This document shows, in pieces, positions 3,945 to 63,632 of a stretch of DNA of 64,000 nt. The position numbers and the translations under genes were made by a program. Origin of the DNA: a bacterium (GTDB lineage Bacteria > 4484-113 > JAFGCY01). The notes beneath the pieces are model-generated. The model saw only the letters and a list, made by a program, of their open reading frames with translations, was not told where the DNA came from and made no database searches. Where the stretch lies: positions 5,092 through 69,091 of the forward strand of contig JAGRNR010000009.1 of NCBI GenBank assembly GCA_020440645.1, given 5' to 3'. How positions within the stretch are numbered: position 1 is the first letter of the stretch; every line of letters starts with the position of its first letter.

Positions 3945-3950
3945 ATTCTA
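3945..3950 (-). promoter_or_regulatory. Putative -10 box (TAGAAT on the minus strand), 22 nt upstream of the ATG at 3922
   Basis: The + strand reads attcta. The same hexamer recurs upstream of many genes in this window. Confidence 0.4.
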
Positions 3951-7511: not shown

Positions 7512-8879
7512 CTAGCCGTCCCCGCTGTCCATTCCCGCCTCATTCTCTCCGCGGCTGGCCTGCTCCGGCGCACTGGGCCGCCTGAGCGGCTGGGGCAGGT
7601 CGGAGGATCCACCACGGCGTAGCTCCTGCGGGATGTCGGACGGTCCGTCCATCTTGTGCAGGTACAGCGACTGGCTCGGGAAGGCGAAGTCAACGCCGAT
7701 CTCGGCAAACAGGTCCATGATGCGCAGCATCAGGTCCTCGCGGATGATCAGGTAGTCCGCCCAGACAGCCGTATTGGCAAAGCAGTACACGAGGATATCC
7801 AGCGAGCTGGCACCGAAGTCGGTGAAGTGCACCAGATGGAAGCGCTGGTCGATGCCGCTGTGCTTTTCGATGATGTCGCGAATGCCATCCACGGCCTTGC
7901 GCAGCCTGGTGGCATCCGCGTCATAGGTGATGCCGATCGTCAGGTTGATGCGGCGCATGTCGCGCACGCTGAAGTTCTGGATGTTCTCGTTGGTGACGAT
8001 CTTGTTCGGCACGCTGACAACGGTCTTGTCAAAGCAGCGGATGCGCGTGGAGCGGATGCCGATCTCCTCCACGTCGCCCTCCACGCCGGCCATCTTGATC
8101 CAGTCCCCGCGCTTGAACGGGCGGTCCATGAAGATCATGAAGCTGCCGAAGATGTTGGCAACGGTGTCCTGCGCGGCGAAGGCCAGCGCCAGGCCGCCGA
8201 TGCCGACACCGGCCAGCACTGCGGTGATGTCCCCGCCCCAGCTCTGCACGCAGGTCAGGATCACCAGCAGGATGATCAGCACCTTGGCGGTGTCGCGGAT
8301 CATCGGGATGAACTGCCCGTCCAGTACGCTCGTGCTGTCCGGCCGCTCCTTCTGGCTCAGCCAGCTCAGCGCGACCTCGACGACGCGGAACAGGATCATG
8401 CCGACGTTGACGATCAGCCAGGTTGTCAGCAGCGACCACACGATCGCATTCGCGCGGCCGGGCAGGTCGATGAAGGCGAAGGCCAGGAACAGGCCCCAGA
8501 TCATCACGAAGGTGCCGATCTGCTTGCGCAGTGCGGCCAGGACCCGGTCGTCATACTTCGTCTCGGTACGTTCAACGATCGGCTTCAGGTAGCGGTCCAT
8601 CACCTTCTTCGCGATCTGGCTGATGAACAGTGCCAGCAGCAGGAAGAATGCCGCGGCCAGCAGCCCGAAGGCGTTGAGGCCGAAGACGGTGGTGTTGTTG
8701 AGCTGCCTGTAGGTGCTGGTCACGTTGGCGCCCAGCACGCGTTCTATCAGTTCGTTGGTCTTCTGGCGGGTTTCCTGGCGAGCGCTGTCCGAATCCGGCA
8801 CCAGCAGCGGTATCTGTGCCTGGCCCTCCTGCGAGTCCGCCTGTGCGTTGTCAGTGCTCTGCTGGAGAAGTAGGAGCAT
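7512..8879 (-). CDS. Mechanosensitive ion channel, MscS family
   Basis: IFGSFMIFMDRPFKRGDWIKMAGVEGDVEEIGIRSTRIRCFDKTVVSVPNKIV (MscS beta-domain). The track ORF extends to 9119 but overlaps deoC. The ATG at 8879 is preceded by a perfect TATAAT and a 6-nt spacer. Confidence 0.85.
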   Translation of the reverse strand: MLLLLQQSTDNAQADSQEGQAQIPLLVPDSDSARQETRQKTNELIERVLGANVTSTYRQLNNTTVFGLNAFGLLAAAFFLLLALFISQIAKKVMDRYLKPIVERTETKYDDRVLAALRKQIGTFVMIWGLFLAFAFIDLPGRANAIVWSLLTTWLIVNVGMILFRVVEVALSWLSQKERPDSTSVLDGQFIPMIRDTAKVLIILLVILTCVQSWGGDITAVLAGVGIGGLALAFAAQDTVANIFGSFMIFMDRPFKRGDWIKMAGVEGDVEEIGIRSTRIRCFDKTVVSVPNKIVTNENIQNFSVRDMRRINLTIGITYDADATRLRKAVDGIRDIIEKHSGIDQRFHLVHFTDFGASSLDILVYCFANTAVWADYLIIREDLMLRIMDLFAEIGVDFAFPSQSLYLHKMDGPSDIPQELRRGGSSDLPQPLRRPSAPEQASRGENEAGMDSGDG

Positions 8880-8885
8880 GCGGCC

Positions 8886-8891
8886 ATTATA
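8886..8891 (-). promoter_or_regulatory. -10 box TATAAT, 6 nt upstream of the mscS-family ATG at 8879 (leaderless configuration)
   Basis: The minus strand reads TATAAT ggccgc ATG. Confidence 0.55.
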
Positions 8892-8928
8892 CAGTCGGTA
8901 TTTCTGGCAGCGCTGCTGCGGCAGGCCA

Positions 8929-8934
8929 TACAAT
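8929..8934 (+). promoter_or_regulatory. -10 box TACAAT, 6 nt upstream of the deoC ATG at 8941 (leaderless configuration)
   Basis: The + strand reads TACAAT gtcaac ATG. It is divergent from the mscS promoter within a 61-bp intergenic region. Confidence 0.55.
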
Positions 8935-8940
8935 GTCAAC

Positions 8941-9612
8941 ATGTTCATGCGACCGCCCGCTGATGCTGCATTGCACACGAGGCTTGACCAGGCATTCCTC
9001 AAGGCCGACCCGGCTGCCACGGTGGAGGCCCTGCGTGCCCAGGTGGAATTGGCAACACGCCTGCAGCTGCGCAGCCTGTGCGTGCCGCCGCTGCTGGCCG
9101 GCACGGTGAAGAAGCACAACCCGCAGCTCAGGGTATCGACCGTGGTGGCCTATCCGCTCGGGCTGGAAAGCGCCAGCTGCAAGTACTTCTCGATCGAGGA
9201 ACTGATGGAGCAGGGCATTGACGAGTTCGACGTCGTGCTGGACCTGTTCGCGCTCGTGAATGGCAACATGGCGAAGCTGGCGGCCGAGGCCGGCAAGCTC
9301 GGCACGCTCTGCCGCCGCCAGCAGCGGATGCTGAAGGTGATCATCGAAACCCCGATCCTCAATGAGGCTCGCATCACTGAAGTGGTACACGTGCTGCGCG
9401 ATGCCCCGGTGGACTGCGTCAAGACCAGCACCGGCTACGGCCGCGATGCCACGAAAGTCGAACATGTGGAGCTGATCCGCCGGGAACTGGGCGACGACAG
9501 GCTCGTGAAATGCAGCGGCGGAGTGCGCAGCAGGGAGGATGCCCTGCGGATGGTGGATGCCGGTGCGGACATCATCGGCACCAGCAGCGCCGAGGCGATC
9601 CTCGCTTCCTAG
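8941..9612 (+). CDS. deoC: Deoxyribose-phosphate aldolase
   Basis: KVIIETPIL, VDCVKTSTGYG (Schiff-base Lys context), VKCSGGVRS and AGADIIGTSS. The track ORF starts at 8713, but homology begins at MFMRPP (8941). Confidence 0.9.
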   Translation: MFMRPPADAALHTRLDQAFLKADPAATVEALRAQVELATRLQLRSLCVPPLLAGTVKKHNPQLRVSTVVAYPLGLESASCKYFSIEELMEQGIDEFDVVLDLFALVNGNMAKLAAEAGKLGTLCRRQQRMLKVIIETPILNEARITEVVHVLRDAPVDCVKTSTGYGRDATKVEHVELIRRELGDDRLVKCSGGVRSREDALRMVDAGADIIGTSSAEAILAS

Positions 9613-10070
9613 ACCCCGATCTCCTCGCGGTCCATGCCGACCTGCTCCATCAGCGGGAATGCCATCCAGTACAGCAGGCAGGTGAATACGGCAGCGACGC
9701 TGCTCATCACCCCGGCCGGCCAGCGGTGGAAGTCATTGCTGAAGGTGAAGTACAGCCACATCCCGCCCAGGATCAGGCAGACAACGCCGGCGATTGCGAG
9801 GAAGCGGCTCGTGCCGCTGCTTTCCAGCGTGAACTGCCAGCGTTCATGGTCGCTCGTATCCATGTCCCAGTAGACCACGCCCAGCAGCAGCTGGTAGATT
9901 CCGCCGAGCACCAGCGCCCAGCTGCACATGTAGCTGAAGCCGATGATGCCGTGGTTGAAGCCCTTGAAGATCACCACCGTGTCGGCGGCGTCAATCCAGG
10001 GCAGGCGCGGCCCATTGACCAGCACGAATGCCGTGCAGACTATCGCAGCTATCAGGTAGAGGCTTCGCAT
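9609..10070 (-). CDS. Hypothetical integral membrane protein (153 aa, about 4 TM)
   Basis: Hydrophobic segments, for example LYLIAAIVCTAFVLV and FLAIAGVVCLILGGMWLYF. TAGAAT lies 8 nt upstream of the ATG at 10070. The gene overlaps the deoC stop by 4 nt, convergently. Confidence 0.65.
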   Translation of the reverse strand: MRSLYLIAAIVCTAFVLVNGPRLPWIDAADTVVIFKGFNHGIIGFSYMCSWALVLGGIYQLLLGVVYWDMDTSDHERWQFTLESSGTSRFLAIAGVVCLILGGMWLYFTFSNDFHRWPAGVMSSVAAVFTCLLYWMAFPLMEQVGMDREEIGV

Positions 10071-10078: not shown

Positions 10079-10084
10079 ATTCTA
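10079..10084 (-). promoter_or_regulatory. -10 box TAGAAT, 8 nt upstream of the ATG at 10070
   Basis: The minus strand reads TAGAAT caaacggg ATG. Confidence 0.45.
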
Positions 10085-13470: not shown

Positions 13471-13476
13471 ATTCTA
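13471..13476 (-). promoter_or_regulatory. Putative internal -10 box TAGAAT, 18 nt upstream of the deacetylase ATG at 13452
   Basis: The minus strand reads TAGAAT ctccagccgacaacgcct ATG. It sits immediately after the hairpin at 13480..13495. Confidence 0.35.
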
Positions 13477-18157: not shown

Positions 18158-18163
18158 ATTCTA
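18158..18163 (-). promoter_or_regulatory. Putative -10 box TAGAAT, 46 nt upstream of the receiver gene
   Basis: The + strand reads attcta. It is followed by AAAGGTGA (SD-like) about 10 nt before the ATG at 18111. Confidence 0.4.
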
Positions 18164-18342
18164 CCACACACATATTTATATGTGAAACGATTTGATTGTA
18201 CATAATGTAATCTTAGTTTAACTAAAGTTTAATAATAGACAATATGAACAGTCAGTTTTCCCTGACTGTCAACACTAAGTGCAAGCACCTTGTTAATACA
18301 TGGTTTATCATTCTGGCAATACTCTGCTGCGCGGAGGAGCAC

Positions 18343-20775
18343 GTGTCTCACACAACCCGGAACTTGAAACTTGTCGCAATTGCGTTGACAATTTGCATGC
18401 TTGCTGCGACTGAATCTCAGGCAGCACCTGATGTGCCAACACGTGCCGGCGAGAACTTCCTCGAGATCCGCCAGCCGGATGGAAGCTACAAACCGATCTT
18501 CGTGAAGGGTATGAGCCTGTCTGCGGCACTTCCCGGCAAGCACCCCAGTGAATTCCCACACGACGAGCAACTCTTCCGGGACTGGCTGAAGAAACTGGCG
18601 GACATGAACTGCAATGTGATCCGCCTTTATACAATTCTGCCGCCCGAAGTCTATCGCGCCCTGCGCTACCACAACACCACCTATCCGGACCAGACCATCT
18701 GGCTGATCCAGGGCTGCTGGGTCACTCCGCCGACGGACCCCGACTACGATTTCTGGGGCCAGAAGTTCAACGATGAAGTTGAGCTGAACTCGCGCCATGC
18801 AGTAGACCTGGTCTATGGAAATGCGAACTTTGATGACAGGCCGGGCTGGACGGGCGGCCGCTATGACGCGGATGTGTCCCCCTGGCTGCTGGCCTGGCTG
18901 TGGGGCCGCGAGTGGGAACCCGATGACATCGAGCGCTTCCACGAGCTGACCAACCGCCGCGAGTACAAGGGCCGCTACATCAGCGCGATCGATAAGCAGC
19001 CGATTGACTGCTGGCTGGCCAAGATGTGCGATTACGCCGTTTCCTACGAAATGGACCAGTACAACAAGCAGCACCCGATCACCTACAGCTCATGGCCGGT
19101 GACTGACCCGATGGAGCATGTCAGCGAGAGCAAGCTGTCCGTCAACTCGGCCGAGAATGAGGGCCGCGTGGACATCTTCAGCAGTGACACGATCCAGATG
19201 ACCGTGAAGGACTTCACCGTCTCGCCGGACTTCAAGGCCGGTGTGTATGCCTCATACCATATTTATCCTTACTGGCCCGACTTCTTCGACAATGAGGTCG
19301 AGTACAGCCTGTGCAAGGACCGCTTCGGGGTCAGCAACTACTACGGTTACCTGACCCACCTGAAGGAGCATTACGGCACGATGCCGCTGCTGGTTGCCGA
19401 GTATGGCCTGCCCAATGGTCCGATGCCGGCGCACAAGCAGAAGCAGGGCCTGCACCACGGCGGCCACTCCGAGGAGGAAGTGATTGACGGCATGGAACGG
19501 CTGACCTATGACATCTGGGACAGCGGCTGCGCCGGTGCGATCGTGTTCGCCTGGATCGATGAGTGGTTCAAGAAGACCTGGATCTGGGCTGATTTCTATG
19601 ACCCCTGGGATGACCGCCGGCTTTGGTACAACCAGTATGACCCGGAGGAGAACTACGGCATGATCGCCCTGCTGCCCGGCGAGGGTGGCCCGAACAACAC
19701 GCTCAGCGGCAATGACGCTGAGTGGGAGGATGTCAGCGTCCTGCCCGGCGATTCGGTGGCCGTCGCTGACAACGCCCCGGTGATCACGAGCGTCAAGGCG
19801 ATGCATGATGAAGGCTGGTTCCACCTGCGCATCCGGCTGGACAACTTTGATGACTGGGACTTCGACAAGACGGAGCTGAGCATCGGTTACGACATCCTCG
19901 ACAGGCTGGGTGGCAACTTCGCCTGGCCCGGCCCGCTGAAGTTCCTCAGTGACAGCGGCCTGGAGACCGTAGTGCAGATCAAGAGCGGCCAGGCCTACAT
20001 GTACCAGACCGAGACCTGGCGCTTCTGGCGACCCTTCAATGATGAGGTGTCCAAGTCCATCTCGCTCGGTGAGGCCAAGCCGCACTACCTGCAGATGGAG
20101 GAGAACCGCTGGAGCTGGTTCGAGCCCTGGGTGGAAACCAACATCTACCGGCTCGGGCGTGACGGGACCTTCTTCCCGTCCCAGTCCTTCAAGCTCAACC
20201 CGCTGCCGCGCGGCACCCTGATCGAGGGCCAGCCGCGATACACCCAGCAGGCAATCTGGAACTCCGACCCCGATAGCAAGGTAGTGGAGATCCGCATGCC
20301 CTGGATCCTGCTCGGTTTCGTCGGCCCGCACCAGCGTCGCGTGTTGCAAAGCGATATCGACGAGCCCTCGAAGAATTCAAGTGTGGTGACTGATGGCATC
20401 GGCGTGGGACTGGCGATGTCCAGCGCGCGCGGTGATGCGCTTGCGGTCTGGCCCGGCATGGATGTCTATGACGCGGACGACCCAAACAGCATCCTCAGCT
20501 CACAGTTCGACGGCTGGAACCGCATCCTGACCAGCAAGAGCGGGATCTACACCTGGGACGAGTGGGGCGTGGAGGATATCCGGTACCACGGACGCATCAA
20601 GCCGATCTATTACGCGATGCGTGACCTGTTCGGAAGCATTGAACAGGTGCGACCACTTTGGAAGGATGGGCCGCAGCGCCAGCCGGTTCCGGATGGCACG
20701 GAGATGCCGGAGACGCCTCCGCTGGCTGAGCCCCTCAAGATCGACCACGCGGCGATCCTGCGCCAGCAGAACTGA
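18343..20775 (+). CDS. Secreted TIM-barrel glycoside-hydrolase-like protein (about 810 aa)
   Basis: GGAGGA at 18333..18338, then 4 nt, then the GTG at 18343, giving VSHTTRNLKLVAIALTICMLAATESQA (signal). The track start at 18244 adds 33 AT-rich, atypical codons. Motifs CNVIRLYTILPPEVY, LLVAEYGLPNG and FAWIDEWFKKTW resemble GH clan-A strands. Confidence 0.7.
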   Translation: MSHTTRNLKLVAIALTICMLAATESQAAPDVPTRAGENFLEIRQPDGSYKPIFVKGMSLSAALPGKHPSEFPHDEQLFRDWLKKLADMNCNVIRLYTILPPEVYRALRYHNTTYPDQTIWLIQGCWVTPPTDPDYDFWGQKFNDEVELNSRHAVDLVYGNANFDDRPGWTGGRYDADVSPWLLAWLWGREWEPDDIERFHELTNRREYKGRYISAIDKQPIDCWLAKMCDYAVSYEMDQYNKQHPITYSSWPVTDPMEHVSESKLSVNSAENEGRVDIFSSDTIQMTVKDFTVSPDFKAGVYASYHIYPYWPDFFDNEVEYSLCKDRFGVSNYYGYLTHLKEHYGTMPLLVAEYGLPNGPMPAHKQKQGLHHGGHSEEEVIDGMERLTYDIWDSGCAGAIVFAWIDEWFKKTWIWADFYDPWDDRRLWYNQYDPEENYGMIALLPGEGGPNNTLSGNDAEWEDVSVLPGDSVAVADNAPVITSVKAMHDEGWFHLRIRLDNFDDWDFDKTELSIGYDILDRLGGNFAWPGPLKFLSDSGLETVVQIKSGQAYMYQTETWRFWRPFNDEVSKSISLGEAKPHYLQMEENRWSWFEPWVETNIYRLGRDGTFFPSQSFKLNPLPRGTLIEGQPRYTQQAIWNSDPDSKVVEIRMPWILLGFVGPHQRRVLQSDIDEPSKNSSVVTDGIGVGLAMSSARGDALAVWPGMDVYDADDPNSILSSQFDGWNRILTSKSGIYTWDEWGVEDIRYHGRIKPIYYAMRDLFGSIEQVRPLWKDGPQRQPVPDGTEMPETPPLAEPLKIDHAAILRQQN

Positions 20776-20863: not shown

Positions 20864-20974
20864 TCAGAGCAAGTGGCGCCAGTTGCTGAAGAACACGTAC
20901 CAGCAGCCGTTAAATATCCCAGCAACCACGACCGCGATCAGGATGTAGAGCAGGGTATCCCTGGCTATCCGCAT
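20864..20974 (-). CDS. Small hydrophobic peptide (36 aa), not in the ORF track
   Basis: My translation is MRIARDTLLYILIAVVVAGIFNGCWYVFFSNWRHLL, with one TM. TATACT (20986..20981) sits exactly 6 nt upstream of the ATG, the same leaderless geometry seen at about 9 other genes. Confidence 0.45.
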   Translation of the reverse strand: MRIARDTLLYILIAVVVAGIFNGCWYVFFSNWRHLL

Positions 20975-20980: not shown

Positions 20981-20986
20981 AGTATA
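20981..20986 (-). promoter_or_regulatory. -10 box TATACT, 6 nt upstream of the small-ORF ATG at 20974
   Basis: The minus strand reads TATACT gatcgg ATG. Confidence 0.45.
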
Positions 20987-20988
20987 GT
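20983..20988 (+). promoter_or_regulatory. Putative -10 box TATAGT for motA, overlapping the divergent minus-strand -10
   Basis: The + strand reads TATAGT, 36 nt before the GTG at 21025, which is preceded by GGAAGG (21015..21020). Confidence 0.35.
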
Positions 20989-27348: not shown

Positions 27349-27383
27349 TCTGCTCCGGGCCGCTAGCGGCCAGCCACACGGAG

Positions 27384-27389
27384 TATACT
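27384..27389 (+). promoter_or_regulatory. -10 box TATACT, 6 nt upstream of the plsY GTG at 27396 (leaderless configuration)
   Basis: The + strand reads TATACT tcccgc GTG. Confidence 0.5.
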
Positions 27390-27395: not shown

Positions 27396-28061
27396 GTGCC
27401 CCTATATTACTTGACAGTGCTGGCGCTCGCCGGGTTCCTGAGTGGATCCCTGCCCTTCGGCTGGCTTGTGGCGCGGCTCGGGGGCATGGACATCCGCAAG
27501 CATGGCAGCGGCAACATCGGCATGACCAATGTCTGGCGCGTGATGGGCTGGAAAGCGGGCCTGACTGTGCTGCTGCTGGACGTGGCCAAGGGCCTGCTGC
27601 CCGTGCTGCTGGCCGGGCGCCTGATGGACACCGTCAACCCACCGGGGCTGACGATCAGTGGCCGCGCCTGGCTGCTGCTGATCACCGGGCTGGCCGCGAT
27701 CCTCGGGCATACATTCACGCCCTGGCTGAAGTTCAGGGGCGGCAAGGGTGTCGCCACCAGCCTCGGTGTGCTGATCGCGCTCTACCAGTTATGGGTGTTG
27801 GCGCCGCTTGGCGTATTCCTGCTGGCGCTGGCAATCACGCGCATGGTGAGTGTCGGCAGCATCCTCGCCGCACTGAGTGTGGGCATCCTTGCGGTGGCCG
27901 TGCCGGCACTCAGGCCCTACATGGCGTTTGGCATCCCAGTGGCTCTGCTCGTGATCTGGACGCACCGCAGCAACATCCGCCGCATCCTCGACGGCACGGA
28001 AAGCCGCGTCGGCAGCGGGAAGAAAAAGCCCGCAGCGGAGTCAACCCAGGCGGATCAGTAG
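27396..28061 (+). CDS. plsY: Glycerol-3-phosphate acyltransferase PlsY
   Basis: GSLPFGWLVARL, HGSGNIGMTNVWRVMG and GHTFTPWLKFRGGKGVATSLG. Confidence 0.95.
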   Translation: MPLYYLTVLALAGFLSGSLPFGWLVARLGGMDIRKHGSGNIGMTNVWRVMGWKAGLTVLLLDVAKGLLPVLLAGRLMDTVNPPGLTISGRAWLLLITGLAAILGHTFTPWLKFRGGKGVATSLGVLIALYQLWVLAPLGVFLLALAITRMVSVGSILAALSVGILAVAVPALRPYMAFGIPVALLVIWTHRSNIRRILDGTESRVGSGKKKPAAESTQADQ

Positions 28062-29755
28062 ATCCCGGCGGAGTGGATCGAATCCAGCATTGCCGAATAG
28101 CCCGCTGACATATGCATCAGCCAGTTCGGATAGATGCCGAGGAAGATGATCGCAGCGCCGAGTGGCAACAGCACGATGGCCTCACGCAGCGGCACACGGC
28201 CCTTCGCCGACTCCGGTGCATCCCCCGGCAGCGTGCGCTGCAGCAGGCTGATCATGTACACCGCGCTCGTCAGCACGCCGATCACCGCCAGGGCCGAGAG
28301 GATCTGCAAAAGCAGGCTGCCGTCGATGCTGCCAACCAGCACCGTCTGCCAGCCCGGCCCGTTCTCGAACGCGCCCATTAAGCTGTACAGCTCGCCCCAG
28401 AAGCCGGCCAGCGCCGGGAAGCCCATGCCGGCGAAGGCCGCCAGCGAAAGCATGCCCGCCAGGAGCGGGGCCGCGCTGCCCAGCCCAGCGATCTCATGCA
28501 CGTTGCGTGTGCCGTAGCGCCGCTCGATGCTGTCCGCCAGCAGGAACAGCGTGGTGATGATCACGCCGTGGCCCACCATGTGGTAGATCGCGCCGGTCGT
28601 TGCCAGCGGGTTCATTGCGCTGCAGCCGAGGATGATGAAGCCCATGTGGCTGATCGAGCTGTAGGCGATCATGCGCTTGATGTCGGTCTGTACCAGCGTG
28701 ACAGCCGCGCCCCAGACGATGCCGATCACCGCCAGCGTGGCAACCACCGGGCCGATCGCGTAACCCTGGTCCGGCAGCGCCCAGTACAGCACGCGCAGGA
28801 ATGCGTATGTCCCGCTCTTGAGCATCACCGCCGCGAGGATCACCGACATTTCCGCCGGGGCCTGGGTATGGGCCGGCGGCAGCCAGGTGTGCAGCGGGAA
28901 CAGCGGTGCCTTGACGGCGAAGGCCACGAGGAAGCCGAGGAAGATCCACATCCTCAGCCAGGGCACGACATCCGTATAGCCCTCGTTCAGCAGGAAGGTT
29001 GCCAGGTTCGGGATCTGGAAGCTGTAAACGCCGGCGCTGATCACCTTGCAGATGATGAGCGACATCAGCATGAACACCGAGCCGGCCATGGTGTACACGA
29101 AGAAGCGGATCGCGGCGCGCGCCGCCTTCTCGCGGTCCTTGCCCCAGCCGCCGATCAGCACGTACATCGGGATCAGCATCCATTCCCAGAACAGGTAGAG
29201 CAGCACGAAGTCCAGCGCCACGAAGGAGCCGATCAGGCCGACCTGCATGAACAGGGTCAGCGCGAGGAATTCCTTCACCCGCTCCGTGCGGTACCAGCCC
29301 CAGATGATGATCAGTGGCAACAGCGCACAGGTCATCAGCACCAGTGGCAATGACAGGCCGTCGATGCCGACGTCGTAGTGCACGCTGAAGCTGCGGCTCT
29401 CGCCGATCTTGATCGCCATCCATTCGATGTCCTGGCGGTACTGGAAGCCCGGGAACTCCGCCTGGAAGGGCGTGTACTGCCCGAGCGGCTTCAGGTCCTG
29501 CACGTTCTGCGAAGTGTCCGTGTATCCGGCGTAGGGCCGCCAGCTGGTTGCACTTTCGGGCAGCCCGGTCAGCAGCAGCACCGCAAACAGCAGGCTGAGC
29601 AGCGAGAACACCAGGGCCACGATCTTGATTGGCAGGATCTTCTTCTTCGGGATCAGGCAGACCAGCAGGCAGCCGACCAGCGGGGCCAGCATCATCTGGG
29701 TGATGGGGTTGCTGATCCACGAGATGAAGCCTATGAAACTCTGCGTCTGGTCCAA
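28055..29755 (-). CDS. nuoM: Complex I antiporter-like subunit, NuoM/ND4 homologue
   Basis: LYLFWEWMLIPMYVLIGGWG, FAVKAPLFPLHTWLPPAH, VMLKSGTYAFLR, AYSSISHMGF and GFWGEL. TTG start at 29755, preceded by GGGAGGT 8 nt upstream, directly after the nuoL TAG. Confidence 0.9.
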   Translation of the reverse strand: MDQTQSFIGFISWISNPITQMMLAPLVGCLLVCLIPKKKILPIKIVALVFSLLSLLFAVLLLTGLPESATSWRPYAGYTDTSQNVQDLKPLGQYTPFQAEFPGFQYRQDIEWMAIKIGESRSFSVHYDVGIDGLSLPLVLMTCALLPLIIIWGWYRTERVKEFLALTLFMQVGLIGSFVALDFVLLYLFWEWMLIPMYVLIGGWGKDREKAARAAIRFFVYTMAGSVFMLMSLIICKVISAGVYSFQIPNLATFLLNEGYTDVVPWLRMWIFLGFLVAFAVKAPLFPLHTWLPPAHTQAPAEMSVILAAVMLKSGTYAFLRVLYWALPDQGYAIGPVVATLAVIGIVWGAAVTLVQTDIKRMIAYSSISHMGFIILGCSAMNPLATTGAIYHMVGHGVIITTLFLLADSIERRYGTRNVHEIAGLGSAAPLLAGMLSLAAFAGMGFPALAGFWGELYSLMGAFENGPGWQTVLVGSIDGSLLLQILSALAVIGVLTSAVYMISLLQRTLPGDAPESAKGRVPLREAIVLLPLGAAIIFLGIYPNWLMHMSAGYSAMLDSIHSAGIY

Positions 29756-31918
29756 CTACTCGTACCTCCCGAGGAAGCTCTGAATGATGCGCCGCAGTGT
29801 CTCGTTGAGCGGGAAGGAGACGACAATGCACATCAGCACGGCACCCAACAGCAGCACGAACATGTAGTTCTGGATCTGCCCGTTCTGCCAGTAGCGGCCG
29901 TGCAGCCGCTTGATGATCCACCAGATCTCGCAGCACCACCAGCGGATGCCGTCGACGAAGTGCAGGTCAAGCCAGGCACTGGCATTGGCCAGCCCACGGC
30001 CGCCGCGCCCGATGCGCGTTGACAGCCAGTCGATCAGGCGGATGTCTGAAATGCCTGCAAGAATTGCGAGGAACTCGCCGAAGCCGCCCACCAGTCCCGT
30101 GAAGAAGGGCTTCAAGTACAGCCCCTCGCGGAAGAATCCGGTCACGCCTGTCAAGAGCGGGGTCGGGCTGGCCAGCCCGCGCTCCGAGGCGGAGACGAAT
30201 CCAAGCACTGCGCCGGCCAGCACCAGCACGACCGAGAGGCCGGCGGCCAGTGGTTCGAAGTTGCCTGCCCATTGCAGGTCGTGCAGCCGGCCCTCGAAAT
30301 AGGCGCGGTAGGATGGCCAGAAGGCGGCGATGCCGATGCTGCCGATGAGCGCCAGCAGGATGGAAATCACAGTCGGTCCGGCCCAGCCATTGCCTGCGGA
30401 CGCTTGCTCCGCCAGGCCATTGGCAGCCTCCTTGCCGGGGGAAGGCATCAGCCCGCTCAGCAGGCGCGCACAGTAGGCTGCGGTAAAGGGAATCGATGCG
30501 ATCAGCAGCAGCGCTCCGGCCTGCCAGTAACCCGGCATGGCGGGCATTGTGCTTGCCAGTGCGTTGCCACCGTAGTCCTGTCCGGCGCGGGACAGCAGCG
30601 CGGAGAGGATCTGGTCCTTGCCGAAGTAGCCCGCCAGCCCGATCACACCGGCCAGGCTCAGGCCGGCCGGCAGCAGGGCCAGCCAGAACAGCTGTCCGCT
30701 GGCGGGGGACTGCCTAAGGTCGTCAAAACTCGGTTCGTCGTCATTATGTGTTGCCTGGGCCTCATGCCAGCGCGCCACCACAATGCCGACCGCAAGGAAC
30801 AGCGCGGCCTTGAACCAGGCATGTGCCAGCAGCTGGAATCGCGCGGCCTCCATCGCCAGCGCCCCGCTGCCCATCACGCACAGCCCAAGCTGGCTGACCG
30901 TGCTCCAGGCCAGCAGCTTCTTCGGCTGCTGCTGGCAACAGGCCACGATCGAGCCCATGAGCATCGTCAGGCCGCCGAGCATCACCGCCCAGGCCAGCGG
31001 GGCCACGTACCAGCCGGGGTTGCCACTGTCCGCCTGCACCGGCACGACAGTTCGCCCGAACAGCAGGTCACTGGCCAACAGCGGCCCGGCCGCCACCAGA
31101 GTTGCACTGTGCAGCAGGGCACTGACCGGGGCCGGGGCCACCATCGCATCCGGCAGCCAGAATGACAGCGGCAGGAGTGCTGCCTTGCCGAGCACGGCCA
31201 GCAGGACTAATAGTCCGGCCACGATCATCCAGTTCACGGCGGACAGCTGGTCCGGTACATGCTGTGCCACCCAGCCGATGCTGACCTGGCTGAGCTGCAC
31301 CATGTGCACACCGAAGCGGCCGAAGCCGAACATGAAGATGAAGATCGCGAACAGCAGCCCGAAGTCCGTGGCGCGCGTCGTCCAGAAGGCCTGGCGCGCT
31401 GCCCGGTTGGCCTCCGGCGTGCCCTTGTGGCGGATCAGCAGGTAGCCGGCGAGGCCCATCATTTCCCAGGCGATGTACAGCAGGATCAAAGTGTCACTGA
31501 CGAGGAACAGCAGCATTGAGCCGCAGAAGAATGTCAGCAGCGCATGGAATTGCGCGGCCTTCGGGTCAGCGCGCCGCTCGCGGATTGCATACAGCAACAC
31601 CGCCACGCCGATCAGGCAGGTTGTCAGGATGAACAGCACCTGCGTGTAGTCCGCGCGCAGGGCCAGCGGGATCGGCGGGAAGGCGCGGATCTCCGTGGTG
31701 TAGCCGCTGATCCAGTTGACCATCCATACCGCGCGGCCGGTCTCGGCATCCAGTCCCGCATTGACGGCGAGCGCCATCCCGGCACTGGCCACAAGCGACA
31801 GCACGCCGAGCAGGGCCGTGACGACGGCCGGCACACGGCGCATGAGCAGGCCCGCCCCCGCCGCCAGCAGCGGCAGAAGCGCGATCAGCGGCAGCAGTCC
31901 CTGCATCTCAGGCACCAC
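29756..31918 (-). CDS. nuoL: Complex I antiporter-like subunit, NuoL/ND5 homologue with a C-terminal lateral-helix region
   Basis: AWEMMGLAGYLLI, GKAALLPLSFWLPDAMVAPAPVSALLHSATLVAAG, HAWFKAALFLAVG and C-terminal FVDGIRWW...LHGRYWQNGQIQNYMFVLLLG. AGGAGG at 31927..31922 precedes in-frame GTG codons at 31918 and 31915. Confidence 0.9.
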   Translation of the reverse strand: MVPEMQGLLPLIALLPLLAAGAGLLMRRVPAVVTALLGVLSLVASAGMALAVNAGLDAETGRAVWMVNWISGYTTEIRAFPPIPLALRADYTQVLFILTTCLIGVAVLLYAIRERRADPKAAQFHALLTFFCGSMLLFLVSDTLILLYIAWEMMGLAGYLLIRHKGTPEANRAARQAFWTTRATDFGLLFAIFIFMFGFGRFGVHMVQLSQVSIGWVAQHVPDQLSAVNWMIVAGLLVLLAVLGKAALLPLSFWLPDAMVAPAPVSALLHSATLVAAGPLLASDLLFGRTVVPVQADSGNPGWYVAPLAWAVMLGGLTMLMGSIVACCQQQPKKLLAWSTVSQLGLCVMGSGALAMEAARFQLLAHAWFKAALFLAVGIVVARWHEAQATHNDDEPSFDDLRQSPASGQLFWLALLPAGLSLAGVIGLAGYFGKDQILSALLSRAGQDYGGNALASTMPAMPGYWQAGALLLIASIPFTAAYCARLLSGLMPSPGKEAANGLAEQASAGNGWAGPTVISILLALIGSIGIAAFWPSYRAYFEGRLHDLQWAGNFEPLAAGLSVVLVLAGAVLGFVSASERGLASPTPLLTGVTGFFREGLYLKPFFTGLVGGFGEFLAILAGISDIRLIDWLSTRIGRGGRGLANASAWLDLHFVDGIRWWCCEIWWIIKRLHGRYWQNGQIQNYMFVLLLGAVLMCIVVSFPLNETLRRIIQSFLGRYE

Positions 31919-31953
31919 CCACCTCCTGCTGTGTCGTCGTCATCTGCAAGTCG

Positions 31954-32439
31954 TCAATCCTTCATCAGGTTGGCATCATCAAGCATGATGCTCTTCTTCA
32001 TGCGGTAGAAGGCGATGATGATCGCCAGCCCGACCGCAGCCTCAGCCGCAGCAACGATGATCACGAATATCGAGAACACCTGGCCCATGTTCGTCATCAC
32101 GGATTCCTCCGCGGTGAACGAGGCCAGGGTGGATTTCGGTCCGTAGTAGAAGTTGAACGCGCTCATGTTGATGTTGACGGCGTTGAGCATCAGCTCCAGC
32201 GCCAGCAGCATCCCGATCGCATTGCGCCGCGCGATCACGCCGTACAGCCCGAGGCAGAAGATGAACGCGCTGAGCACGAAGTACTGGTGGTAGTCCACGT
32301 TGGTGAACCACACCATCGGCGTGTCGCCACTTGAGGCGAACCACTGGCGCGAGGCGAACTCGATCGCCTGGATGATCGGCGCCAGGCCCTCGCTCGCCAG
32401 CGAGCCACCCTCGGACTGTTGCAGCAGCAGCAGTAACAT
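31954..32439 (-). CDS. nuoK: NuoK/ND4L homologue, extended (161 aa versus about 100)
   Basis: RRNAIGMLLALELMLNAVN and VAAAEAAVGLAIIIAFYR. The ATG at 32439 overlaps the nuoJ stop (TGATG). The track ORF (to 32652) is over-extended. Confidence 0.85.
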   Translation of the reverse strand: MLLLLLQQSEGGSLASEGLAPIIQAIEFASRQWFASSGDTPMVWFTNVDYHQYFVLSAFIFCLGLYGVIARRNAIGMLLALELMLNAVNINMSAFNFYYGPKSTLASFTAEESVMTNMGQVFSIFVIIVAAAEAAVGLAIIIAFYRMKKSIMLDDANLMKD

Positions 32440-33485
32440 CAGTCCTTCCTCACCAGGATGATCGCGCCGAGCATCGCCATGAGCAGGAGCACGCTGGCCA
32501 CTTCGAAGGGAAGTGTGTACGTTGCCATCAGCGACCAGCCGATGGCCTGGGTATTGCTTGTCAGTACTGCCGCACTGGGCGGGAACTCGGTGTTCTGCGG
32601 GAACTGCATGAACATCCCGACGAGCGCCATGAAGCCGAACAGCATCGTGCACAAAAGCGCGGCCCAGGGGCTCAGGTCAGTGTTCTGCCTGAGCTCGGTG
32701 CCGATGATGTTCTGGCTGACCATGATGCCGAACAGGAACAGCACCATGATGCCGCCGATGTAGATGATCACCTGCACCATCGCGAGGAACTCAGCGTTGA
32801 GCAGGATGAAGTAGCCGGCCACGCCGAACAGCGAAAGGATCAGCATCAGCGCGGAGTGGAACACGTTGCGCATCGTTACGCAACCGATGCCGCCGCCGAC
32901 CACGCCCGCCGTGAACAGCCAGAAGAAGAAGTTCAGCAGCCTGAGCGCGGGCACGCTGAGTGCCAGCATGCCCCAGAAGAAGGCGATGAAGCCAACGACT
33001 GTGAGGATTGCCAGCAGGCGCCGGTGGTCATGGAAGCGGTGCAGCGAAAGCTGCACGCAGGCGATCGTGCCGCCGACCAGCCCGAGGATCAGCATATTTG
33101 AAAGGTTGACAACCAGCGGCTGGAACAGCAGGGAGCTGATCACGAACACCGCCAGGCCAGCGCTGGCTGCCACCCGCAGCAGTCCGGCCTCCGCCGGCAG
33201 GCGGTTGAACAGCATCAGGTTCAGCAGGTAGAAGCCGGCGAGCATGCTGGCGCCCACCAGGATGCGTGCGTCCAGCTGCAAGGCCGCGGACCAGTCCAGT
33301 TTTCCACCCAGCGCTGCCAGCGGGGCGGCCAGCAGCGCCACAAGCACCGCGATCCCGGCCGTTGCCAGCAGCTGGCGGAAGATGCCGTCCAGCCGGTTGA
33401 CGAGCAGTCCGGCGGCCGCCAGCAACGCGGCCAGCAGGGCCACATTGCGCAGCAGCATAAGGGCGGCGGGCAGGCTGGTTTCCAT
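32439..33485 (-). CDS. nuoJ: NuoJ/ND6 homologue with an N-terminal multi-TM extension of about 170 aa
   Basis: The C-terminal half carries RNVFHSALMLILSLFGVAGYFILLNAEFLAMVQVIIYIGGIMVLFLF and PFEVASVLLLMAMLGAI. The N-terminal half is extra hydrophobic helices. Confidence 0.85.
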   Translation of the reverse strand: METSLPAALMLLRNVALLAALLAAAGLLVNRLDGIFRQLLATAGIAVLVALLAAPLAALGGKLDWSAALQLDARILVGASMLAGFYLLNLMLFNRLPAEAGLLRVAASAGLAVFVISSLLFQPLVVNLSNMLILGLVGGTIACVQLSLHRFHDHRRLLAILTVVGFIAFFWGMLALSVPALRLLNFFFWLFTAGVVGGGIGCVTMRNVFHSALMLILSLFGVAGYFILLNAEFLAMVQVIIYIGGIMVLFLFGIMVSQNIIGTELRQNTDLSPWAALLCTMLFGFMALVGMFMQFPQNTEFPPSAAVLTSNTQAIGWSLMATYTLPFEVASVLLLMAMLGAIILVRKD

Positions 33486-34480
33486 CAGGAACTCACCTCC
33501 CCGCGTGGCCGCCTGAGCGGCAGCACCAGCGCCTCGCGATTGGCAACCGGCATCGCCCAGCGCTCCTCGAACACGACGAGCGGGGTGCCGTCCGCGCGCT
33601 TCAGTTCGCCCAGCGCGGGATCATGGTCATAGCGTCCGAGGTCAACGAACAGCACCGTCGGCTGCCCGGGGGCCTGCGCGATTGCACCGCTGCCATCGGC
33701 GGCGATGATGCGCAGCGCTTCCTCCTCAGTCAGTGAGTCGACATTCAAGAGCGGCACGCCGCGGTAGGCCGCCGGCAGCTTCGGCCGGCTGCGCGGATAG
33801 TCCTCGGTGAAGGGCTCGCTCGAAGCCATCCGGGCGGTCTCGCGGAAGCCGGTCAGCACGGAGGTGCCGTAGCGGTGCACGCGGTTGCTGAAGAACCAGA
33901 ATTGGCTGAAGCCGGTTGCAAGGTAGCTCAGGTTGAGCACGAACACCAGGAACCAGAACAGCGCCCAGAGCATGAAGTAGCCGAGCTGGAACTTGAACAC
34001 GGGGAGGCTGCCGGTCTCGCGCCAGATGGCGAAGCCCTCGCCGCTGAGCAGAAGCGTCAGGTTCGGCGTGTCGGCAATGCCCTTCACGCTCATCTTCGGG
34101 TGGATGCGGTCCAGCGGGTCGAATTCCACGATGAAGAAGAACAGGATGATCACGAACAGCAGCAGACGCCAGAGCGTGAAGTCGCGCACCATCCAGCGGC
34201 TGTACTTCACAAGCGCGCCGGATGCCCACCAGAAGAAGCCGAGAATCGCCGGCAGGGCCAGCAGCAGGCCGCTAGCAGTGAACCACATCAGAGAGTACTG
34301 CTCGGAGGGCTGCTTGGAGGCATAGTCGTCAAACAGCGCGCCGTATTTCGTGTAGACGAACACCAACGTGAACCAGGACACGGCGATGAAGCCATAGAAC
34401 TTGAACCAGTCCATCGCGGTGTAGCCGAACCAGCGCTTCGGCAGCGGATGGTGGATTGTCAGGTCATGCCCGTCAGGCAT
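33485..34480 (-). CDS. Unknown polytopic membrane protein with a soluble C-terminal domain (331 aa), embedded in the complex I-like operon
   Basis: The ATG at 34480 (MPDGHDL) overlaps the upstream stop by 8 nt, and its own stop overlaps the nuoJ ATG (TGATG). Trp/Phe-rich TM segments. No cysteine at all, so it is not a NuoI ferredoxin. Confidence 0.75.
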   Translation of the reverse strand: MPDGHDLTIHHPLPKRWFGYTAMDWFKFYGFIAVSWFTLVFVYTKYGALFDDYASKQPSEQYSLMWFTASGLLLALPAILGFFWWASGALVKYSRWMVRDFTLWRLLLFVIILFFFIVEFDPLDRIHPKMSVKGIADTPNLTLLLSGEGFAIWRETGSLPVFKFQLGYFMLWALFWFLVFVLNLSYLATGFSQFWFFSNRVHRYGTSVLTGFRETARMASSEPFTEDYPRSRPKLPAAYRGVPLLNVDSLTEEEALRIIAADGSGAIAQAPGQPTVLFVDLGRYDHDPALGELKRADGTPLVVFEERWAMPVANREALVLPLRRPRGEVSS

Positions 34481-34943
34481 GCTGCACCTCCTCCACCGTT
34501 TCCGGCTCGTTGGCAGCACTGCCGCCCGCTCCTGCTGCGGCGATGTTGCGCAGCTGGGCATGGTGCCCGGGCGCCGTCACCACGAACCAGTAGAGGAAGC
34601 CGGGCAGCAACAGCAGCACCGGCCGCAGTGTGAACTGCAGTTCGTACTGCAGCCACAGCGAATACAGGCAGCCGCAGGCCGCGAAGCTCCACAGCAGGGA
34701 AGCGATGCCGGGCCGCCGCCTGAACCAGGGGTTGATCCAGGCCGCATTGCGCGCCGGCGTCAGCGGCAGCACCGCCAGCAGCAGGCCGATTGCCAGCAGG
34801 GCCAGCGGGCCGAACCACTGCGTTGTCAGCACGGGTGCCACTCCAAGCACGATGCGCAGGTACAGGCCCCAGGCCCCGGCGGCCACGAGCAGCAGCTCTC
34901 CGAGGAGATGCAGCAGGTTCTGGCTGGTTGACAGCATCCTCAT
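34473..34943 (-). CDS. Unknown small membrane protein (156 aa, about 4 TM), embedded in the complex I-like operon
   Basis: The ATG at 34943 overlaps the nuoH stop (ATGA). Sequence MRMLSTSQNLLHLLGELLLVAAGAWGLYLRIVLGV... The track ORF (to 35042) is over-extended into nuoH. Confidence 0.7.
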   Translation of the reverse strand: MRMLSTSQNLLHLLGELLLVAAGAWGLYLRIVLGVAPVLTTQWFGPLALLAIGLLLAVLPLTPARNAAWINPWFRRRPGIASLLWSFAACGCLYSLWLQYELQFTLRPVLLLLPGFLYWFVVTAPGHHAQLRNIAAAGAGGSAANEPETVEEVQHA

Positions 34944-41250: not shown

Positions 41251-41313
41251 CGGGAAGGATTTCGGCGCTCGCTTGTCGGCAGTAGCGGGCGCGCTTGGCG
41301 ACGCCATGGAGTG

Positions 41314-42539: not shown

Positions 42540-42558
42540 GGTTCATGGTAATGCGATC

Positions 42559-47790: not shown

Positions 47791-47843
47791 CTTTATTCCT
47801 TGAACCTGCCTGGTTCCTTATGGCAGTGCAGGAGGCTGGGAAA

Positions 47844-47849
47844 ATTCTA
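47844..47849 (-). promoter_or_regulatory. Putative -10 box TAGAAT for paralog 2
   Basis: It lies 53 nt upstream of the ATG at 47790. AAGGAATAAAG ATG is nearly identical to the paralog 1 leader end. Confidence 0.4.
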
Positions 47850-57908: not shown

Positions 57909-57914
57909 ATTGTA
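57909..57914 (-). promoter_or_regulatory. -10 box TACAAT, 8 nt upstream of the ATG at 57900
   Basis: The minus strand reads TACAAT ccgctgtg ATG. Confidence 0.45.
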
Positions 57915-57965: not shown

Positions 57966-57971
57966 TAGAAT
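57966..57971 (+). promoter_or_regulatory. -10 box TAGAAT, 6 nt upstream of the ATG at 57978 (leaderless configuration)
   Basis: The + strand reads TAGAAT ctatgc ATG. Confidence 0.5.
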
Positions 57972-62491: not shown

Positions 62492-62497
62492 ATTATA
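62492..62497 (-). promoter_or_regulatory. -10 box TATAAT, 7 nt upstream of the GTG at 62484 (leaderless configuration)
   Basis: The minus strand reads TATAAT cgcagcc GTG. Confidence 0.45.
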
Positions 62498-62867: not shown

Positions 62868-62873
62868 AGACTA
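62868..62873 (-). promoter_or_regulatory. Weak -10-like TAGTCT, 6 nt upstream of the ATG at 62861
   Basis: The minus strand reads TAGTCT gctggc ATG. Confidence 0.3.
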
Positions 62874-63626: not shown

Positions 63627-63632
63627 ATTGTA
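63627..63632 (-). promoter_or_regulatory. -10 box TACAAT, 6 nt upstream of the GTG at 63620 (leaderless configuration)
   Basis: The minus strand reads TACAAT cgcgct GTG. Confidence 0.45.

Follow-up and report, generated by a model that had tools for sequence, protein, structure and literature searches.

A leaderless-mRNA signature at operon-first genes in a 64-kb contig segment of an uncultured bacterium

The stretch of contig JAGRNR010000009.1 analysed here (64,000 nucleotides, the window) raises the question of whether the TAnnnT hexamers that lie directly before many of its start codons are promoter -10 elements, and whether the genes behind them are expressed from mRNAs without leaders. 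Start-adjacent TANNNT is an accepted marker of leaderless mRNAs; dRNA-seq has borne it out in D. deserti and M. tuberculosis, and mutagenesis in D. radiodurans (PMC3160421, PMC4007540, PMC3898074, PMC6028130, PMC12340547). The first-pass annotation of the window had listed ten TAnnnT-N6-8-ATG/GTG strings, and all 10 can be read back exactly, on the forward strand at starts 8941, 27396 and 57978, and on the reverse strand at 8879, 10070, 20974, 57900, 62484, 62861 and 63620. The Shine-Dalgarno (SD) sequences that it cited for other genes are present as well: AGGAG-6-GTG at motB (21852), GGAGGA-4-GTG at 18343, GGAGGAGG-5-ATG at 40885, and GGGAGGTG before nuoD. As detailed below, the pattern is not due to chance and represents the known leaderless-mRNA signature, found at roughly one in four operon-first genes. 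That start-adjacent -10 boxes drive leaderless operon-first genes, mixed with SD-led genes, is in our view very probable, with the transcription start sites (TSSs) and the leaderless mode of translation predicted from the DNA sequence.

Position of the motif relative to starts and operons

TANNNT occurs 267 times on both strands of the window (0.0021 per position), and the whole window contains 33 TANNNT-N6-8-[AG]TG strings. For the offset test, we took the 5' zones of 48 genes and the 162 in-frame ATG/GTG candidates within them, leaving the motif out of the choice of starts; the expectation came from the same candidates at hexamer offsets -80 to -18. At hexamer offsets -14 to -12, TANNNT was observed 12 times against 3.7 expected (Poisson p=4e-4), and hexamers with at least 5/6 matches to TATAAT 10 times against 1.5 expected (p=5e-6). 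Start-zone codons carry the motif with an odds ratio of 15 relative to the remaining [AG]TG of the window (p=4e-9), and of 3.3 relative to intergenic [AG]TG only (p=0.013). The positional peak of TANNNT is present in the window (approximately 64 kb) and recurs in relatives and unlinked loci, the analysis covering approximately 200 kb of related loci. Scans of the window for tRNAs and Rfam families gave no matches.

As controls, 110 loci of other phyla were put through the identical pipeline. No start-adjacent TANNNT peak was obtained for the control loci of Bacteroidota/Ignavibacteria/Chlorobi, Desulfobacterota, and Armatimonadota, while those of Acidobacteriota gave a moderate peak, with an excess of 0.08 per gene compared to 0.17 per gene in the window. 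Homologues of the M28 peptidase among the matches listed from genome and metagenome contigs (37-54% identity, many phyla, without synteny) were reused as negative and positive controls. In relatives, 24 of the 123 source-called starts have the motif. The pattern also recurs at unlinked loci of more distant relatives (L174 and L175), which carry different genes and have a DeoC that is approximately 53% identical: here TANNNT is found at -12 or -13 for 7/35 source-called starts, versus 0.86 expected (p=3e-5).

Within the window, the motif is present at 9/34 operon-first genes and at 0/15 internal genes (Fisher p=0.026), and a strong SD (anti-SD dG <= -7) precedes 11 of the 15 internal genes. The median anti-SD duplex energy is -2.3 kcal/mol for the nine motif genes compared to -7.5 kcal/mol for other genes (Mann-Whitney p=5e-5). 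These values support two earlier proposals, namely that leaderless first genes are mixed with SD-led internal genes and, for nine genes, that an SD is missing where the motif is present. The affected share amounts to approximately 25% of operons and approximately 20% of genes.

Conservation and start codons of the individual sites

Close relatives were found via homologous proteins and, from these, the contigs that encode them; they are syntenic, with approximately 73-85% protein identity. The footprint analysis comprised 21 window-relative comparisons for nine sites (Table 1), excluding the near-identical L168. T1, A2, and T6 of the hexamer are identical at 63/63 positions, whereas identity is 94% for hexamer positions 3-5, 76% for the spacer, and 55% for the upstream 20 nt. 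The distance between hexamer and start is preserved in 20/21 comparisons, with ATG-GTG switches tolerated, and both the spacer sequence and the DNA upstream of the hexamers drift among relatives, the latter with indels. At nine of the 10 sites, the footprint is of the type left by a -10 element whose spacing to a conserved start codon is fixed.

Table 1. Start-adjacent hexamers and related promoter elements in the window.
Gene or product	Hexamer	Position	Strand	Relation to start codon	Gene extent or remark
MscS family	TATAAT	8886..8891	-	6 nt upstream of ATG 8877-8879	7512-8879, 455 aa
DeoC	TACAAT	8929..8934	+	6 nt upstream of ATG 8941-8943	8941-9612, 223 aa
153-aa hypothetical	TAGAAT	10079..10084	-	8 nt upstream of ATG 10068-10070	9609-10070
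36-aa hydrophobic small ORF	TATACT	20981..20986	-	6 nt upstream of ATG 20972-20974	20864-20974
PlsY	TATACT	27384..27389	+	6 nt upstream of GTG 27396-27398	27396-28061, 221 aa
Reg_prop protein	TACAAT	57909..57914	-	8 nt upstream of ATG 57898-57900	56776-57900, 374 aa
Ankyrin-repeat lipoprotein	TAGAAT	57966..57971	+	6 nt upstream of ATG 57978-57980	57978-60308, 776 aa
98-aa hypothetical	TAGTCT	62868..62873	-	6 nt upstream of ATG 62859-62861	62565-62861
223-aa hypothetical lipoprotein	TACAAT	63627..63632	-	6 nt upstream of GTG 63618-63620	62949-63620
M28 peptidase	TATAAT	62492..62497	-	GAGG 62465-62468, true start ATG 62455-62457	promoter
Response regulator	TGgTAGAAT with -35 TTCACA	18158..18163	-	~45 nt upstream of ATG 18111	same -10 class, leadered

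The MscS hexamer is invariant in L083, L085, and L087, with spacings of 6, 6, and 7 nt; the start codon alternates between ATG and GTG among relatives, and the anti-SD dG is -1.5. At deoC, the spacer in L087 has a different sequence but the same length, the 61-bp intergenic region has indels among relatives that are not multiples of three, and the Pfam DeoC match begins approximately 9 residues after the Met of the 8941 start. For the neighbouring gene starting at 10070, GGGATAGAAT, the 8-nt spacer, and the ATG are kept in L083, L085, and L087, and the upstream DNA diverges. Its product is 153 aa long in all sources, with an N-terminus (MRSLYLIAAIVCTAF) that is hydrophobic from residue 1.

TATACT-6-ATG/GTG of the small ORF is kept in L171, L172, and L173, as is the ORF itself; the differences among relatives are third-codon-position-like as judged by eye, and the ORF is annotated in none of the sources. 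The same three loci keep the PlsY hexamer. A GGAG 12 nt upstream of plsY was considered as an SD and rejected, since it is CGAG in relatives. The PGAP protein P0241 (99% identical) has 221 aa, and the N-terminus MPLYYLTVL is common to six relatives. Alternatively, PlsY may start at an in-frame GTG seven codons downstream (TATATT-8-GTG at 27417).

The Reg_prop site is kept in L168 and L169, has an anti-SD dG of +0.9, and is followed by a signal-peptide-like N-terminus. At 57978, L169 has TAAAAT and a spacer of the same length but different sequence; the encoded N-terminus (MGQKLLSWLARCSALALLLAGC) is a lipoprotein signal. The 62861 hexamer differs among genomes only at positions 3-5 (TAGTCT, TAAGCT, TACTCT), with a constant spacing of 6 nt, a variable spacer sequence, and MLGIFEELAQ conserved from Met1. 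The 63620 site is kept in L168, L169, and L170, with GTG as start in three genomes and ATG in L170, and the signal peptide of the protein begins at residue 1.

The motif had also been used to shorten three genes relative to the longest ORFs, and all three corrections hold. For DeoC, moved from 8713 to 8941, the NCBI protein P0001 (100% identical) has 223 aa, as do all relatives at 82-83% identity. For MscS (9119 to 8879), the annotated proteins of relatives have 456-457 aa, and for Reg_prop (58209 to 57900) PGAP gives 374 aa in CP060262.1. The longest-ORF starts over-extend MscS by 80, DeoC by 76, and Reg_prop by 103 codons; 9119 and 8713 were rejected given their divergent overlap of approximately 400 bp and disagreement with homologue lengths. 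In the database proteins P0009 and P0010, the -10 box is translated as 'YN'. The annotated lengths in NCBI, JGI, and ENA agree with the motif-adjacent starts, and signal peptides, lipoboxes, or conserved N-termini begin at their residue 1. On the basis of homologue and annotation lengths, N-termini, and signal peptides, the start adjoining the motif is the true translation start at 9/10 sites.

The exception is the M28 peptidase, for which the proposed leaderless start at GTG 62484 was not borne out: the aligned position in L169 and L170 has no start codon, and 62484 was rejected in favour of the conserved, SD-led ATG at 62457. Both GAGG and ATG are preserved in these loci, the signal peptide begins at this ATG, and it is the best M28 start by codon log-likelihood. 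M28 homologues have 615-618 aa, compared to 617 aa from 62457, and begin with M-R/Q-x followed by the signal peptide. Most likely, this TATAAT is a promoter that gives a leadered mRNA, with a leader of approximately 27 nt. Because the peptidase starts at 62457, the supported count in the window is nine, and not the 'at least ten' leaderless genes claimed earlier, and a start-adjacent hexamer by itself is therefore insufficient evidence. Two further strings were rejected, TACTAT-6-GTG at 18123 (response regulator), where the hexamer is unconserved and an upstream TGgTAGAAT is conserved (TGGTAGAAT in L083, L085, and L087), and TATGAT-7-GTG at 53140 (S8 subtilase), where conservation points to ATG 53104, with a lipoprotein signal, as the start. 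An 810-aa gene has TATCAT-7-ATA (ATG in L085), with GGAGGA-4-GTG further on at 18343, and probably starts at this downstream SD-led codon.

Promoter architecture and alternative explanations

The TAGAAT/TACAAT consensus suggested for the local -10 element agrees with our data, in that TAnAAT (TAGAAT, TACAAT, TATAAT) is the commonest strong intergenic hexamer and is also present before leadered genes. The same class is found at longer, variable distances before SD-led genes (13476, 18163, 38543, 43436, 45614, and 50042). Among the putative leaderless sites, only 57978 has a -35 at 16-18 nt (TTGGCA 57942-57947; TTGGCA-18-TAGAAT), and the leadered response-regulator promoter has one by the same criterion. 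A two-hexamer sigma-70 scan gave totals that were not above those of shuffles (6 vs 4.5 and 5 vs 4.3). In this respect the predicted promoters resemble the -10-only ones of Deinococcus and Mycobacterium. At two places, -10 hexamers on the two strands overlap by 4 bp (27382-27389, AGTATACT; 20981-20988, AGTATAGT); both are conserved in relatives and have a predicted TSS separation of approximately 21 bp.

In the explanation we favour, the hexamers would be sigma-70-type -10 elements with local consensus TAnAAT and invariant T1, A2, and T6, lying upstream of first genes in operons and separated from their ATG or GTG by 6-8 nt. Counted from the final T of a -10 box, the usual start point of RNA polymerase is approximately 7 nt further downstream, which would place the 5' end of the transcript on the first base (A or G) of the start codon or 1-2 nt ahead of it. 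The mRNAs of the first nine genes in Table 1 would then have neither a 5' UTR nor an SD, and the ribosome would bind the 5'-terminal AUG or GUG directly. Where the spacer is 8 nt (10070 and 57900), the leader may be 1-2 nt rather than absent; the rejected 62484 had 7 nt. Initiation at internal genes and the remaining first genes would be SD-led or leadered in some other way, frequently with the same -10 class placed further upstream.

One alternative is that the motif is a selection artefact, i.e., a chance TAnnnT near one of several candidate starts in a GC-rich genome. The window has 33 strings of the right form and approximately three start candidates per gene, and the motif-bearing 18123, 53140, and 62484 proved to be false starts. 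However, the offset test over all candidates remains significant, the nine sites are conserved in position and invariant bases at 73-85% protein identity, and independent annotation pipelines chose the same starts. In addition, the independent genes of L174 and L175 repeat the pattern, and the controls from phyla for which leaderless genes are not a known trait are null. An artefact is already largely refuted, and we regard it as extremely unlikely. Another possibility is that the promoters are real, but several genes start at downstream SD-led codons, with the start-adjacent ATG or GTG being just the first purine-rich triplet of a short 5' UTR. This is true of 62484/62457, probably also of the 810-aa gene (18343), and PlsY has its second in-frame GTG at 27417. 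By contrast, the other eight sites have no SD-like sequence or conserved alternative start downstream, and residue conservation, the first residue of signal peptides and lipoboxes, and homologue lengths all agree with the motif-adjacent starts, making this a slim possibility.

The hexamers could also be an A/T-rich, non-SD translation signal (S1 or 'group B' type) on leadered mRNAs made from upstream promoters. Most sites are without a -35, and if leadered, the SD-less genes would need another aid to initiation; moreover, an A/T bias at -20 to -10 is not always separable from S1 binding (Nakagawa et al., PMC5397173). However, conservation falls on precisely the bases that define a Pribnow box (T1, A2, and T6) and leaves positions 3-5 free, unlike a general A/U-rich stretch, and identity is low (55%) in the DNA further upstream, which contains indels. 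In group B genomes (Bacteroidetes type), the A/T-rich signal lies upstream of first and internal genes alike, on leadered mRNAs (PMC6028130). A translation signal should serve internal genes too, yet the motif is found in none of the 15, of which 11 have strong SDs, and the same hexamers occur in promoter-like fashion at variable, longer distances before SD-led genes. We consider such a signal quite improbable as an explanation, and favour start-adjacent -10 elements that would give leaderless mRNAs.

Comparison with known leaderless systems

Shell et al. (2015) reportedly found that a 5'-terminal AUG or GUG suffices for leaderless translation. In M. tuberculosis and M. smegmatis, as is predicted here, a TANNNT -10 without conserved -35 precedes leaderless genes, which make up approximately a quarter of the total; their 5'-terminal codon may be AUG or GUG, and they include small ORFs missing from the annotation (PMC3898074). 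Mycobacterium belongs to a different phylum and its leaderless state is experimental, whereas ours is read from sequence; the enrichment of toxin-antitoxin genes among its leaderless genes is not seen in this window. D. deserti and D. radiodurans share the -10-only promoter directly before the ORF, with a weak or absent -35, as well as GGAG-type ribosome-binding sites on other genes and motif-guided corrections of starts (PMC4007540, PMC12340547). In Deinococcus, however, TSSs and motif function were demonstrated by dRNA-seq and mutagenesis, and the leaderless proportion is 30-60% of genes compared to a predicted 20% or so here.

The overlapping hexamers resemble those of bidirectional promoters (Warman et al. 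2021, as summarised in PMC10268837), in which -10s overlap and are near-symmetrical and which are defined by TSSs 7-25 bp apart, a range that includes the approximately 21 bp predicted for the two sites in the window; the latter would drive divergent genes. The usual separation in such promoters is 18 bp, and their -7T and -11A pair reciprocally, whereas the sites here have a TATA core. Unlike the known cases, one arm of each candidate site is predicted to be leaderless and the other leadered.

The start-adjacent -10 pattern is an ordinary, already described mode of expression and involves no new mechanism; it is the bacterial group C pattern, seen in a lineage where it was previously undescribed. 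We found no paper describing a leaderless trait in Planctomycetes in our literature search, in which the sample and assembly accessions likewise gave no match. Whether the lineage (relatives CP060262.1, GCA_020440605.1, and GCA_041395205.1) represents an unrecognised leaderless-rich clade is, in our judgement, evenly balanced. In such a clade, about a quarter of the transcription units would be -10-only, some would have shared palindromic -10 cores serving a leaderless and a leadered strand, and in some a 5'-terminal GUG or AUG ahead of an SD-led start would give two N-terminal isoforms. For annotation, gene finders and ORF tracks that assume an SD misplace starts in this lineage; once the group C pattern is recognised, N-termini can be corrected along with the signal peptides and lipoboxes that they carry, and TAnAAT serves as local promoter consensus.

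The closest match is group C of GeneMarkS-2, or the TA-like signal of Zheng et al. (2011), with TANNNT approximately 12 nt upstream (counted from the first T), a spacer of 6-8 nt, and a motif limited to operon-first genes, the other genes being SD-led (PMC6028130, PMC3160421). The reported share for group C is 25-50% of operons (PMC6028130, PMC3160421), and the value of approximately 25% here falls within this range; a level of about a quarter of transcription units is typical of Actinobacteria. Positions 3-5 of the hexamer carry more information here (TAnAAT) than they do in the bare TAnnnT of high-GC groups. Finally, the phyla highlighted for group C are Actinobacteria and Deinococcus-Thermus, whereas the organism here is uncultured and listed by NCBI as 'bacterium' or 'Planctomycetales bacterium', and would add, to the lineages known to make heavy use of leaderless initiation, one from outside Actinobacteria and Deinococcota.

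Positional enrichment and conservation of the hexamer

The first-pass annotation had read a TAnnnT hexamer 6-8 nt before the start codon of at least ten genes as a leaderless-mRNA signature. On re-reading, hexamer, spacer length and start codon match at all ten sites, and the Shine-Dalgarno (SD) examples quoted alongside were likewise found. TANNNT is rare in the window (G+C approximately 63%), with 267 occurrences on both strands together; TANNNT-N6-8-[AG]TG occurs 33 times. Because starts must not be picked by motif, we took as candidates all in-frame ATG/GTG codons lying in gene 5' zones, 162 codons for 48 genes, and tabulated each TANNNT at -80 to 0, with the expectation taken from offsets -80 to -18. 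Offsets -14 to -12, which correspond to 8- to 6-nt spacers, gave 12 observed versus 3.7 expected (p = 4e-4), and for hexamers at least 5/6 identical to TATAAT, 10 versus 1.5 (p = 5e-6). The motif is 15 times commoner at start-zone candidates than at the window's remaining [AG]TG (p = 4e-9), and the ratio is 3.3 against intergenic [AG]TG only (p = 0.013). Among 110 control loci of other phyla run through the same pipeline, those of Bacteroidota/Ignavibacteria/Chlorobi, Desulfobacterota and Armatimonadota gave no peak. Acidobacteriota gave a moderate one (excess 0.08 per gene, versus 0.17 in the window), consistent with the 13% of leaderless genes estimated by Zheng et al. 2011 (PMC3160421).

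At full or 96-99% identity, the window's proteins match NCBI entries that carry the label 'bacterium' or 'Planctomycetales bacterium', with the 4.1-Mb assembly CP060262.1 among their sources; more distant PlsY homologs carry the labels Planctomycetaceae, Planctomyces or Phycisphaerae. Syntenic loci from several related genomes (approximately 73-85% protein identity) cover the left (L083, L085, L087), middle (L171, L172, L173) and right parts (L169, L170 and the near-identical L168). In 21 window-relative comparisons at nine sites, leaving out L168, hexamer T1, A2 and T6 are identical in 63/63 cases, positions 3-5 in 94%, the spacer in 76% and the 20 nt upstream of the hexamer in 55%; spacer length is unchanged in 20 of 21, the remaining one going from 6 to 7. 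As judged from these alignments, nine of the ten sites have the footprint expected for a putative -10 box at constant distance from a real start codon. Start codons switch between ATG and GTG among relatives for MscS, the 36-aa ORF and the 223-aa gene, and differences in the 62861 hexamer are confined to free positions (TAGTCT, TAAGCT, TACTCT).

Start assignments and rejected starts

The shorter starts proposed in the first-pass annotation hold for DeoC at 8941 (223 aa in the 100% identical NCBI protein P0001, as in every relative with 82-83% identity), MscS at 8879 (456-457 aa in relatives) and Reg_prop at 57900 (374 aa in CP060262.1); PlsY has 221 aa in the database protein P0241. The 61-bp region between MscS and DeoC has indels whose lengths are not divisible by three, so the long ORF-track extensions are excluded. 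N-termini from motif-adjacent codons show a signal peptide, a lipobox or conservation beginning at residue 1, and in relatives TANNNT lies 6-8 nt from 24/123 source-called starts. Two database homologs of DeoC (8941-9612), P0009 and P0010, have N-termini over-extended through the conserved promoter, with the box translated as amino acids ('...YNVNM' = TACAAT GTN AAC ATG), an annotation error brought about by the leaderless layout. The 36-aa ORF, annotated by none of the source pipelines, has orthologs with TATACT-6-ATG/GTG in L171 (start 3543, minus), L172 (3564, minus) and L173 (716, minus), the last in a different gene neighbourhood. Just past the window edge lies a further leaderless ortholog group: in three genomes a MocR-type regulator has TACTTT-7-ATG.

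The count of at least ten leaderless genes loses one member: 62484 (M28 peptidase) has no start codon in two relatives. GAGG followed by ATG at the 62457 position is kept in all four genomes, and homologs have 615-618 aa, versus 617 aa from 62457, and open straight with a signal peptide. The TATAAT is still conserved among relatives and is therefore a promoter, with a predicted leader of approximately 27 nt carrying an SD. An 810-aa gene has the same layout (TATCAT-7, then GGAGGA-4-GTG at 18343). In both genes the predicted-TSS codon is upstream of the conserved SD-led start, and it could give N-terminally extended isoforms or be incidental. Comparison with relatives also exposed the motif-bearing candidates 18123 and GTG 53140 as false; for the S8 subtilase the conserved ATG 53104 (+), with lipoprotein signal MKRSIFTPMILFVLLIGAC, is the most likely start, in preference to the longest-ORF ATG 53077 or GTG 53140 (+). 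The hexamer by itself is therefore no proof, as the false sites (62484, 18123, 53140) demonstrate.

Coordinates of features in the window
Feature	Position (strand)	Observation
MscS-family channel, DeoC	8879/8941	divergent pair
TAGAAT, ankyrin protein	3945-3950 (-)	21-22 nt upstream of predicted start ATG 3922
TAGAAT, polysaccharide deacetylase	13471-13476 (-)	21-22 nt upstream of predicted start ATG 13452
810-aa gene	18306-18345 (+)	predicted-TSS in-frame codon ATA; ATG in L085
Hydrophobic 36-aa ORF	20864-20974 (-)	conserved; MRIARDTLLYILIAVVVAGIFNGCWYVFFSNWRHLL
Palindromic core	20981-20988	AGTATAGT
Palindromic core	27382-27389	AGTATACT
NADH dehydrogenase genes	28055-38431 (-), 42559-43400 (-)	nuoA-nuoB and nuoC-nuoN blocks, ~4 kb apart; histidine kinase and TfoX-like gene between
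nuoH-nuoJ interval	33485-34480, 34473-34943	two genes without Pfam match at expected place of nuoI
Stretches without confident gene	41251-42558, 47173-47903
265-aa ORF	41742-42539 (-)	negative coding score, no Pfam match
Gap upstream of PKD gene at 47172	47173-47903	731 nt; GTG start of the gene putative
M28 peptidase	62455-62497 (-)	predicted-TSS in-frame codon GTG 62484; ATG in L168, none in L169/L170

Probable leaderless genes and SD-led genes

Approximately 49 genes were called by a self-trained codon model and annotated by Pfam. Besides the pair at 8879/8941 they encode two MacB/FtsX permeases, a polysaccharide-related operon, MotA, MotB and a FliL-like protein, PlsY, a split nuo cluster (nuoE, nuoF and nuoG are absent from the window), several PKD-domain proteins, an S8 subtilase, an M28 peptidase and two ankyrin-repeat proteins; tRNA and Rfam scans found nothing in the window. 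For 49 genes with curated starts, operon-first genes were assigned by the GeneMarkS-2 rule and a strong SD was defined as a dG of -7 or lower. The leaderless motif is present in 9/34 first genes (strong SD in 10, neither in 15) and 0/15 internal genes (strong SD in 11, neither in 4), supporting the proposed mix of leaderless first genes with SD-led internal genes. Median anti-SD duplex energy is -2.3 kcal/mol for motif genes versus -7.5 for the rest (p = 5e-5). Strong hexamers of this class (TAGAAT, TACAAT, TATAAT) are also found farther upstream, at distances that vary, of SD-led genes, among them nuoC, nuoA, the PKD genes and the response regulator, which is promoter behaviour and not ribosome-binding-site behaviour. 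A -35/-10 scan found no recognisable -35 in most leaderless promoters. The predicted leaders of 13452 and 3922 (approximately 14-15 nt) contain no SD; these could be short-leader, SD-less mRNAs.

In both palindromic cores, kept in relatives, -10 hexamers on opposite strands share 4 bp. The core at 27382-27389 would serve leaderless plsY on one strand and leadered PP2C (27348, GGAG) on the other, and that at 20981-20988 the leaderless 36-aa ORF and leadered motA (21052). The predicted divergent TSSs are approximately 21 bp apart, within the 7-25 bp that defines bidirectional promoters.

The pattern recurs in two loci of more distant relatives, L174 and L175, whose DeoC is approximately 53% identical and whose gene content is unrelated: 7/35 source-called starts carry TANNNT at -12 or -13 versus 0.86 expected (p = 3e-5). 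Genes there with the start-adjacent box are unrelated ones such as YggT, Cupin_2, DUF4395 and an Nramp fragment. The L175 DeoC ortholog (9955-10003) looks leadered, with TAAAAT, approximately 29 nt including an SD-like AAGGA, then ATG. Judged from this layout, initiation mode switches between orthologs, in agreement with the evolutionary switching on record (PMC3160421).

Proposed mechanism and known systems

What the sequence shows is -10-like elements kept at 6-8 nt from validated start codons, in genes that have no SD, and SDs elsewhere in the window. RNA polymerase starts approximately 7 nt downstream of a -10 box. At this distance transcription would begin at the start codon's A or G, and from established knowledge the resulting 5'-terminal AUG or GUG would be translated without a leader. 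The leaderless signature is confirmed and its interpretation supported with one correction (62484 to 62457); as an explanation of the motif sites, leaderless initiation is, from sequence, highly probable. The main value lies in correct start annotation.

The phenomenon itself is well known, and only its occurrence in an uncultured Planctomycetota-labelled lineage is new; our literature search found no description of the leaderless pattern for Planctomycetes. The window matches exactly the pattern that Zheng et al. 2011 called a 'TA-like signal' and that of GeneMarkS-2 'group C', which comprises 1028/4769 bacteria, mostly Actinobacteria and Deinococcus-Thermus (PMC6028130), and the lineage appears to show it at roughly actinobacterial frequency. 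The same pattern was established by dRNA-seq in D. deserti (PMC4007540) and M. tuberculosis (PMC3898074) and validated by mutation in D. radiodurans (PMC12340547), whereas here it is read from the DNA; as in the window, most leaderless promoters of Deinococcus and Mycobacterium lack a recognisable -35.
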